13,134 bases of DNA from a virus (lineage: Duplodnaviria; Heunggongvirae; Uroviricota; Caudoviricetes), in the IMG/VR virus record IMGVR_UViG_2681813271_000010; one strand, given 5' to 3'. Positions 1,329-1,868 of this stretch are shown piece after piece; the first letter of the stretch is position 1; each line of letters starts with the position of its first letter. A program made the position numbers and the translations under genes. The notes under the pieces were generated by a model. The model was not told the origin of the DNA and did no database searches. It worked only from the letters and a program-made list of their open reading frames with translations.

Positions 1329-1403
1329 TGGAGCGGGCAGCGGGAATCGAACCCGCATCATCAGCTTGGAAGGCTGAGGTAATAGCCATTATACGATGCC
1401 CGC
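1329..1403 (-). tRNA. tRNA-Gly (anticodon UCC)
   Basis: Minus-strand sequence GCGGGCATCGTATAATGGCTATTACCTCAGCCTTCCAAGCTGATGATGCGGGTTCGATTCCCGCTGCCCGCTCCA folds as a cloverleaf: 7-bp acceptor, anticodon stem TCAGC/GCTGA, loop CTTCCAA, T-loop TTCGATT, 3' CCA encoded. Confidence 0.85.
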
Positions 1404-1406
1404 ATA

Positions 1407-1482
1407 TGGTGCCGACTACCGGAATCGAACTGGTGACCTACTGATTACAAGTCAGTTGCTCTGCCTGCTGAGCTAAGTCGGC
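1407..1482 (-). tRNA. tRNA-Thr (anticodon UGU)
   Basis: Minus-strand GCCGACTTAGCTCAGCAGGCAGAGCAACTGACTTGTAATCAGTAGGTCACCAGTTCGATTCCGGTAGTCGGCACCA: acceptor GCCGACT/AGTCGGC, anticodon stem ACTGA/TCAGT, loop CTTGTAA, one mismatch in the T-stem, CCA encoded. Confidence 0.8.
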
Positions 1483-1484
1483 GC

Positions 1485-1561
1485 TGGCCCACCACCGAGG
1501 ACTCGAACCTCGCACCGTCAACTTAGAAGGTTGATGCTCTATCCGGATGAGCTAGTGGTGG
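1485..1561 (-). tRNA. tRNA-Arg (anticodon UCU, reads AGA)
   Basis: Minus-strand CCACCACTAGCTCATCCGGATAGAGCATCAACCTTCTAAGTTGACGGTGCGAGGTTCGAGTCCTCGGTGGTGGGCCA: acceptor CCACCAC/GTGGTGG (unusual C1-G72), D-stem GCTC/GAGC, anticodon stem TCAAC/GTTGA, loop CTTCTAA, CCA encoded. Confidence 0.8.
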
Positions 1562-1562
1562 T

Positions 1563-1639
1563 TGGTGGCCCTTGCTGGACTTGAACCAGCGACCTGGCGA
1601 TTATGAGTCGCTCGCTCTGACCAACTGAGCTAAAGGGCC
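1563..1639 (-). tRNA. tRNA with CAU anticodon, Ile2 (lysidine-type, ileX/ileZ-like) rather than Met
   Basis: Minus-strand GGCCCTTTAGCTCAGTTGGTCAGAGCGAGCGACTCATAATCGCCAGGTCGCTGGTTCAAGTCCAGCAAGGGCCACCA: acceptor with C4 and C5, anticodon loop CTCATAA, T-stem GCTGG/CCAGC. Closely resembles the E. coli ileX-type tRNA as I recall it. Confidence 0.8.
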
Positions 1640-1727
1640 GGAGGCAGAATAATAACCATATGTCATCACATCTGCAAACTCATCTGACCACCAGCACGTT
1701 TAACGTCCTGTGCCGTTTTTCAGGTAT

Positions 1728-1750
1728 AAAAAAACCCGCTCATCGGCGGG
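1728..1750 (-). terminator. intrinsic terminator (minus strand) between Q-like gene and tRNA cluster
   Basis: Stem CCCGC (1735-1739) / GCGGG (1746-1750) with 6-nt loop; A7 on plus (1728-1734) gives a U7 tail on the minus-strand transcript. Confidence 0.5.
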
Positions 1751-1846
1751 TTTAAGCTGTGTGGCGTAGTAACCACTCTTAACAGGATATTCAACTTTTT
1801 ACGATCNNNNNNNNNNNNNNNNNNNNNNNNNNNNNNNTTCAGGTAT

Positions 1847-1868
1847 AAAAAAACCCGCATAAAGCGGG
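1847..1868 (-). terminator. second intrinsic terminator (minus strand), near-copy of the 1728-1750 element
   Basis: Stem CCCGC (1854-1858) / GCGGG (1864-1868); A7 on plus (1847-1853) gives a U7 tail on minus. Shares the upstream TTCAGGTAT-A7-CCCGC context with the first terminator; a 31-N run (1807-1837) lies between them. Confidence 0.5.

Follow-up and report, generated by a model that had tools for sequence, protein, structure and literature searches.

A four-tRNA cassette between the late antiterminator and lysis genes of a lambdoid prophage

The stretch of DNA analysed here (the window) comprises 13,134 nucleotides (nt) of the IMG/VR virus record IMGVR_UViG_2681813271_000010 and carries a cluster of four transfer RNA (tRNA) genes, Ile2-CAU, Arg-UCU, Thr-UGU and Gly-UCC, on a minus strand which corresponds to the early-right to late region of a lambdoid prophage of the E. 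coli type. The four-tRNA cassette is real, ordinary and already known, being the same as the Ile-Arg-Thr-Gly arrays present in RefSeq. The explanation which we consider likely is that the tRNA genes belong to a lambdoid cassette of approximately 420 bp (a Chi site, a promoter-like element and the four genes) which raises the supply of scarce tRNAs and is transcribed from its own promoter, and that the tandem terminators which precede it in the window are an artefact. Promoter activity, aminoacylation, lysidine modification and a fitness effect of the cassette are what we infer from its sequence.

Exactly four tRNA genes were identified in the window with ARAGORN, all on the minus strand (Table 1), and each was predicted to fold into a regular cloverleaf, with spacers of 1, 2 and 3 nt between the genes. 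All four have the 7-bp acceptor stem and the arms of a bacterial elongator tRNA and a 7-nt anticodon loop with U33, and all score above the gathering score of 29 of the Rfam tRNA model (RF00005). The same DNA in E. coli FDAARGOS_944 is annotated in RefSeq by the NCBI Prokaryotic Genome Annotation Pipeline (PGAP) as tRNA-Ile, tRNA-Arg, tRNA-Thr and tRNA-Gly. The isotypes and anticodons assigned in the initial annotation, which was made from the sequence alone, were correct, and the tRNA prediction tools called no pseudogenes and no other anticodons. The novelty which had been implied for a set of four members was not borne out, as an identical cluster is found in RefSeq annotation and approximately 600 complete E. 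coli genomes have the four-slot layout.

The gene with the CAU anticodon was labelled tRNA-Met by ARAGORN; this label was rejected on the basis of its identity to ileX, its acceptor-stem pairs and the tRNA-Ile assignment by PGAP. The gene is identical to host ileX at 69/77 positions, compared to 54/78 for the elongator gene metT and 48/78 for the initiator gene metZ, and it is identical to ileZ of the Shiga toxin (Stx) phages at 74/77. Its acceptor stem contains C4-G69 and C5-G68, followed by A73, and it has no initiator features; the corresponding pairs of metT are U4-A69 and A5-U68, and in metZ the acceptor stem opens with the mismatch C1xA72. The pairs C4-G69 and C5-G68 were reported to be characteristic of tRNA-Ile(CAT) genes (PMC1635315). 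On these sequence features the CAU tRNA is of the Ile2 type, with predicted lysidine modification and aminoacylation, and the ARAGORN 'tRNA-Met' call at 1563-1639 should become tRNA-Ile2.

To judge from gene identities, the cassette is a composite of phage-type Ile2 and Arg genes and host-type Thr and Gly genes. The tRNA-Gly gene is identical to K-12 glyT over its whole length (75/75), and the tRNA-Thr gene is identical to K-12 thrU at 74/76 positions, the two differences (U16C and U20C) both being in the D-loop. Positions 16 and 20 are usually occupied by dihydrouridine; the two changes were present alike in 52 sampled copies.

The Arg tRNA in slot 2 begins with the pair C1-G72, as had been remarked upon earlier and as was seen again in the ARAGORN cloverleaf and by alignment; this pair is otherwise typical of E. 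coli tRNA-Pro. It is common to the window gene, to argN of the Stx phages (64/77 identical) and to the slot-2 'tRNA-Lys' of many E. coli prophages (66/77). The window gene is homologous to argN; its interpretation as a copy of argU or argO was rejected, as identity is only 58/79 and 46/77, respectively. The anticodon carried on this scaffold varies, being UCU in the window, UCG in argN and UUU, together with C33 and U73, in PhiR47_1, 689R5, CE0026f and 08-00022, while in a few contigs the slot-2 anticodon loop is broken by indels. The window gene is the best-formed member of the scaffold, with all stems paired and with U33, A20, C35 and G73; A20 and C35 are the main identity elements for arginyl-tRNA synthetase. 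The window gene has A-U at pairs 3-70 and 30-40, where the variants and argN, respectively, have G-C; these compensatory stem changes point to continued structural selection on the Arg scaffold. Variants of slot 2 were seen at loci L001, L002, L005, L006, L011 (2595-2671), L063 and L075, and PGAP annotation of the UUU form was inconsistent (tRNA-Lys or none). We regard the anticodon variability of the argN-type slot as a modest curiosity.

Codon usage was compared between 31 intact genes of the near-identical FDAARGOS_944 prophage and 42 K-12 genes. The seven most enriched codons in the prophage were AGG (5.3x), AGA (3.9x), AUA (3.3x), CGG (2.9x), CGA (2.3x), ACA (2.0x) and GGA (1.8x). The four tRNAs read five of these codons, AGG by wobble, and the remaining two, CGA and CGG, are the codons which the alternative UCG anticodon of argN would read. 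The role in rare-codon supply proposed in the initial annotation fits the values for AUA, AGA, ACA and GGA. Enrichment of the cognate codons was significant in the late genes (Fisher test, p from 1e-6 to 6e-4) and was equally strong in early and late genes, so the codon demand is not late-specific. The chance that all four A-ending cognate codons would fall among the top 7 of 61 is approximately 7e-5 (hypergeometric) if codons are exchangeable, which they are not, since acquired DNA is rich in rare codons generally. The same rare-codon rationale has been published for tRNAs downstream of Q, ACA making up 17.3% in phage SfI versus 7.1% in its host strain (PMC3636060).

A promoter-like element precedes the tRNA-Ile2 gene and is positioned downstream of both terminators (Table 1); a consensus scan reported it in an overlapping register, TTTGCA-18-TATTAT, with 9/12 matches. 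Across three upstream classes which have otherwise diverged (the window type, the Stx-phage/PhiR47/CE0026f type and the L046 type), both hexamers stay in place relative to the tRNA, while the spacer and the upstream sequence change: mean pairwise identity was 0.77 in the hexamer columns versus 0.43 elsewhere, the best of 22 possible frames. A fourth upstream class has TTGAAA-16-TATTAT, further upstream. The monocistronic host gene ileX has TATAAT 10 nt before its mature 5' end. These observations suggest that the cassette probably has its own predicted sigma-70-type promoter and that its expression is probably not purely Q-dependent. The motif was also considered as the late promoter PR' itself; this was rejected, as the tRNA would then be the first region transcribed and there would be no space for a pause or Q-loading site. 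Between the cluster and the lysis genes there are two terminator-like hairpins (689-715 and 1051-1070) which, as judged by folding, could stop transcripts from the tRNA promoter; hairpins before the holin gene are expected if a constitutive tRNA promoter must be kept off the lysis genes.

The initial annotation had also described two similar terminators before the cluster. Both hairpins exist (T1 and T2 in Table 1; T1 was missed by a simple terminator scan and was confirmed by folding), but the tandem joins two prophage contexts across a scaffold gap. The window contains nine runs of N, at 637, 1807, 2548, 3393, 5546, 8426, 8717, 9520 and 12931, the second of which separates the T1 contig from the contig holding T2 and the tRNAs. 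At 637-662 there are 26 N and a lengthened poly-C where relatives have 2 nt, and at 3393-3619 there are 227 N where L030 has 21 nt; as their lengths differ from those in relatives, the N runs are assembly gaps and not length-preserving masks. The block carrying T1 (1838-2547) has N runs at both ends, and 281 nt of it (2267-2547) are repeated with 100% identity at 5557-5837, the duplicate being associated with two 11-N gaps; the window scaffold seems to interleave segments from two or more prophages. Diverged local duplications were also seen at 8572-8716/8749-8893 (94%) and 9130-9429/9521-9820 (90%).

The T1 and T2 segments have only their last 20 nt or so (at the 3' end) in common, the remainder being different, and a 120-bp tandem duplication was rejected on this basis. 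The window has 119 nt (31 N and the T2 segment) which are absent from its closest relatives. Two natural arrangements were found, each with one terminator: DUF1367-DUF1364-DUF1133-T1-tRNAs, with T1 alone, in L003 and L004 and 25 sampled loci, and Q82-type Q-ORF6N-T2-tRNAs, with T2 alone, in L030 and L061. T2 is directly 5' of the tRNAs in 10 IMG/VR contigs and downstream of ORF6N in L012, L013, L030 and L061. Both terminator pieces are present in L019, where they are joined by a single N exactly at the end of the shared repeat, and the tandem form was found in 0/5,426 complete E. coli genomes. The T1-T2 tandem is thus probably a scaffolding artefact in which the alternative upstream flanks of two collapsed cassette copies were laid end to end. 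The most economical reading is that, on the contig truly holding the tRNAs, only T2 precedes them, and the Q82-type Q gene, not the DUF1133 gene, is likely to be their true neighbour. The double terminator should not be read as a regulatory design, because it spans the scaffold gap.

Under the explanation which we favour, a cassette with its own promoter that supplies scarce tRNAs, the four genes occupy the usual accessory-gene slot between the late antiterminator and the lysis genes. Each tRNA duplicates a host isoacceptor for an A-ending codon, namely AUA for Ile2, AGA (and AGG by wobble) for Arg-UCU, ACA for Thr-UGU and GGA for Gly-UCC; as these codons are used far more by the prophage than by core E. 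coli genes, the cassette would top up tRNAs that are scarce. A single precursor would be transcribed from the sigma-70 promoter, the -10 hexamer of which ends 9 nt before Ile2, so that expression would take place already in the repressed prophage; once the prophage is induced, replication of its genome and Q-modified read-through starting at the late promoter would yield further tRNA. The individual tRNAs would be released at the 1-3 nt spacers by RNase P and 3' exonucleases. The cassette itself would move between lambdoid phages by recombination, and it is often present in several copies per genome.

A number of observations weigh against this explanation. The promoter motif scores only 8-9/12, and 5 such matches were found in the region versus 4.5 expected; the matches are therefore not above chance, and the case for the promoter rests on its conservation. 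No convincing late promoter PR' was located between the Q genes and T1/T2. As candidates for a short RNA from PR', Rfam matches to isrK (19.9 bits) and the Trp leader (23.1 bits) upstream of T1 were rejected, both being far below threshold and driven by the terminator hairpin. Rare codons are enriched in all horizontally acquired DNA, so that a match between codons and tRNAs is partly expected without any selection for the tRNAs, and the host codon baseline consisted of 42 genes only. Codon adaptation was reported to be no different between lambdoid phages with and without tRNA genes (PMC4631060). Members of the cassette have decayed in some relatives (a broken glyT copy and the slot-2 anticodon-loop indels), which indicates that the cassette is dispensable.

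It had been proposed at the outset that expression may depend on Q-mediated read-through, the supply of rare-codon tRNAs then rising specifically in the late phase; in its strict form this would mean that the cassette has no promoter of its own and that the tRNAs are transcribed solely when Q allows read-through of the upstream terminator(s). A Q-family antiterminator gene is indeed immediately upstream of the tRNAs, as in the PR'-tR' paradigm of lambda, 82 and 21, strong intrinsic terminators are found between the Q-like gene and the tRNAs, and the same gene order is found in Stx phages, where Q controls stx (PMC3491183). In L012 the tRNAs come after a methylase gene of the late operon and no terminator is close by, and so read-through certainly reaches the tRNAs in some phages. 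We nevertheless consider exclusive dependence on Q to be unlikely, and restriction to the late phase was not upheld, given the conserved -35 and -10 hexamers between the terminators and Ile2 at a fixed 9 nt, the similar geometry at ileX and the need of early genes for the same codons. In addition, the double terminator is probably an artefact, and the terminator-like hairpins downstream suit an independent unit which is kept from driving the lysis genes. Strict Q dependence would be possible if the promoter motif were inactive. Retention without any present benefit was also weighed, the cassette being then a neutral hitch-hiker assembled from captured host genes and old phage genes and kept by a recombination-prone junction near Chi. 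Its Gly and Thr genes are 100% and 97% identical to host genes, relatives carry decayed copies, most contexts have an adjoining Chi site and, at L069, the cassette is joined to host thrT-tufB. We regard this as improbable, since 52 of the Arg tRNA copies sampled have one and the same, fully paired sequence, stem changes in the variants are compensatory, the array persists behind no fewer than four different upstream contexts, and the four anticodons match the codons most over-used by the prophage.

A role in counter-defence, in which the phage tRNAs would stand in for host tRNAs that anticodon nucleases cut or tRNA-targeting defence systems deplete, or would serve as decoys for them, would be in keeping with the unusual variability of the slot-2 anticodon, which is UCU in the window, UCG in the Stx phages and, in many E. 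coli prophages, UUU accompanied by C33 and U73. Both PrrC and PARIS target tRNA-Lys(UUU), and phage T5 evades PARIS by means of its own tRNA-Lys. A nuclease-evading or decoy tRNA, such as T5 tRNA-Lys or the tRNAs of mycobacteriophages, would be expected to have an anticodon stem-loop unlike that of the host target, whereas the four anticodon loops of the cassette are those of ileX (CUCAUAA), argU (CUUCUAA), thrU and glyT, the Gly gene being host glyT and the Thr gene differing from thrU in the D-loop only. With loops identical to those of the host, the cassette tRNAs should be cut by any nuclease that cuts the host tRNAs, and no defence or anti-defence gene was identified beside the cassette. 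We give this explanation very little weight; as judged from the loops, counter-defence is unlikely for the window cassette and may apply to its UUU/C33 relatives.

At least 80% of the 311-nt cluster was present in 603/5,426 complete E. coli genomes (approximately 11%). The exact CAU-UCU-UGU-UCC array was found at 50 of 73 loci anchored on the Ile2 gene (62 of the loci being IMG/VR contigs), while the exact Arg-UCU tRNA is rarer, at 42 places in 16 of the 5,426 genomes, with a median of 3 copies per genome. Upstream, the cassette may be preceded by DUF1133 and T1 (L003), by Q82-type Q and ORF6N with T2 (L030 and L061), directly by a 127-amino acid Q (L077) or by a DNA methylase gene (L012), and in E. 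coli CFSAN029787 it is present behind two different Q genes at separate loci. Slot 4 of one locus in this strain (L004, 1979-2050) is annotated in RefSeq as 'tRNA-Val(UAC)' and is a glyT copy in decay: its anticodon loop has two substitutions, its 3' acceptor strand has lost 1 nt and its CCA is missing; from its sequence it is most likely a mis-annotated pseudogene.

Three Chi sites were found in the window versus 0.36 expected. The one between the terminators and the promoter-like element (Table 1) is in a block which is kept behind T1, T2 and the L077-type Q, and is absent from 689R5, 08-00022, Stx2a_F349 and VL7S7; this site could help the cassette to move between phages by recombination. 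On the IMG/VR contig L069 (4860-5480) tRNA-Gly of the cassette is followed directly by host thrT and tufB, the spacer AGATGT being that of the host. This join arose either when prophage glyT recombined with the thrU-tyrU-glyT-thrT operon of the chromosome or as an assembly chimera at the 75-nt repeat, which is identical in the two; it was not relied upon as proof of capture from the host operon, a short-read chimera at the repeat being equally likely.

Table 1. Positions in the window of the tRNA cassette and the features around it, in minus-strand order.
Feature	Position	Strand	Evidence and remarks
Q82-type Q gene	3372-3932	-	Pfam profile search
DUF1133 protein gene	1948-2502	-	Pfam DUF1133, E=2e-107; on gap-bounded block 1838-2547
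Intrinsic terminator T1, GC stem and U7	1869-1847	-	Folding -17.1 kcal/mol, z=-5.6; 80 nt after DUF1133 gene
31-N run (gap between T1 contig and T2-tRNA contig)	1807-1837	.	
Intrinsic terminator T2, 8-bp stem and U7	1753-1725	-	Folding -12.0 kcal/mol, z=-3.0; contiguous with tRNAs
Chi site GCTGGTGG	1688-1695	-	Approximately 50 nt upstream of tRNA-Ile2, between terminators and promoter-like element
Promoter-like element TTGCAG-17-TATTAT	-35, 1677-1672; -10, 1654-1649	-	9 nt to mature 5' end of tRNA-Ile2
tRNA-Ile2 (CAU), lysidine type, ileZ/ileX-like	1563-1639	-	Rfam 70.5 bits; CCA encoded
tRNA-Arg (UCU), argN-type scaffold	1485-1561	-	Rfam 56.4 bits; CCA encoded
tRNA-Thr (UGU)	1407-1482	-	Rfam 69.8 bits; CCA encoded
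tRNA-Gly (UCC)	1329-1403	-	Rfam 64.9 bits; CCA encoded
Weaker terminator-like hairpin	1070-1051	-	-10.0 kcal/mol; downstream of tRNA cluster
Strong terminator-like hairpin	715-689	-	-17.3 kcal/mol; approximately 70 nt upstream of holin gene
S21-type class II holin gene, first of lysis cassette	405-620	-	Pfam Phage_holin_2_1, E=5.8e-35

The gene order on the minus strand of the window is cI/cro, replication genes (ydaV), QueH, hokD/sok, DUF1367, DUF1364 and the Q-like genes, followed by the terminator(s), the tRNAs, approximately 710 nt with no recognisable gene, the holin gene and the start of a lysozyme gene. For the DUF1133 protein there is, in addition, an above-cutoff match to Pfam Phage_antitermQ (E=8e-7) and a weak match to the structure of phage 21 Q (6P18; E=4e-4); by these matches it is probably a Q-type late antiterminator. 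The position of the tRNA cluster upstream of the lysis cassette, as originally described, was confirmed by the holin gene and the start of the lysozyme gene; in the relative L003 an annotated holin gene is followed by the lysozyme gene rrrD. The spacer between tRNA-Gly and the holin gene, which in the window includes the 26-N gap at 637-662, measures 679 nt in the gap-free L003. A 98-amino acid open reading frame in the window spacer (855-1151) had no Pfam match, no Rfam family was found in the spacer, and a hairpin at approximately 1094-1188 folds no better than shuffled sequence (z=+1.1); there was no megablast match to the spacer in the phage collection.

Other features were observed elsewhere in the window. 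A gene for the epoxyqueuosine reductase QueH is found in the nin/early region at 7637-8323 on the minus strand (Pfam PF02677, E=1.9e-65) and is annotated as QueH in FDAARGOS_944; one prophage thus holds both a tRNA-modification enzyme and a tRNA cassette. QueG is the usual E. coli enzyme for epoxyqueuosine reduction. The nin region also contains a hokD/sok type I toxin-antitoxin locus (7404-7579 and 7254-7466, both minus strand; Rfam sok, 117 bits). An Rfam sRNA-Xcc1 match (77 bits, gathering score 53) was found at 3040-3123 on the minus strand between the Q82-type Q and ORF6N domain genes, and an IS4-type transposase gene is present at 4190-5536.

The importance of the cassette is small beyond its correct annotation. 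As such cassettes probably have their own promoter, a lysogen's supply of minor tRNAs may change with its prophage load, a point that bears on the expression of virulence genes rich in rare codons. A bolder version, which we put forward tentatively as a possibility, is that the cassette is an autonomous unit, equipped with its own promoter and flanked on either side by terminators, and that the repressed prophage expresses it; 3-5 copies would then measurably reshape the host tRNA pool toward acquired genes rich in AUA, AGA, ACA and GGA, and the C1-G72 slot 2 would be a fast anticodon-switching platform (UCU, UCG, and UUU with C33) which tracks codon demand or anticodon-nuclease pressure. If this were true, autonomous expression from a repressed prophage would amount to a lysogenic conversion that acts on translation.

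tRNA genes downstream of Q have reportedly been described since work on phage 21 and 933W. They are a known feature of lambdoid phages (PMC3636060, PMC3491183, PMC4631060), and a literature search for ileZ/argN/argO found nothing relevant. The kinship with the ileZ/argN set of Stx phages suggested in the initial annotation holds for the first two genes, given the identities reported above for Ile2 and Arg. The ileZ-argN-argO cluster of Stx phages (933W, Sakai and pv1717-type) occupies the same slot between Q and the lysis genes and shares with the window cassette its position and rationale, its first tRNA (ileZ), the C1-G72 scaffold of its second and the promoter-like motif before Ile2. The two differ in that the window slot 2 reads UCU, the anticodon of argO, and has G73 and a fully paired T-stem, where argN has UCG and U73; the Stx-phage order of argN (UCG) second and argO (UCU, on a G1-C72 scaffold) third was not found, an argO homologue being absent from the window. 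Slots 3 and 4 of the window instead hold copies of thrU and glyT, and there are no stx genes.

The Ile-Lys-Thr-Gly clusters of PhiR47_1, vB_EcoS-689R5 and CE0026f have the same four-slot layout and spacing, are 92-94% identical to the window over the whole cluster and, as in the window, have a thrU-like Thr and a glyT-like Gly gene. They differ at slot 2, which has UUU, C33 and U73 and is annotated as Lys or not at all, compared to the canonical Arg-UCU with U33 and G73 of the window; the Ile-'Lys'-Thr-Gly arrays are the commoner form, and the Ile-Arg-Thr-Gly array of the window is a close variant of them. The host genes ileX/ileY, argU, thrU and glyT, which encode minor isoacceptors of E. coli, have the same anticodons and loops as the cassette, and Ile2 is 90% identical to ileX with the same acceptor-stem determinants; the host genes are dispersed, while those of the cassette are packed with spacers of 1-3 nt, and the Arg tRNA is not a copy of argU. 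SfI, Sf6, ST64T, phage 21 and phiP27 carry tRNA genes in the same slot downstream of Q, for which the same rare-codon rationale has been proposed, and differ from the window in having Asn and/or Thr, or only two tRNAs, in place of a fixed array of four.

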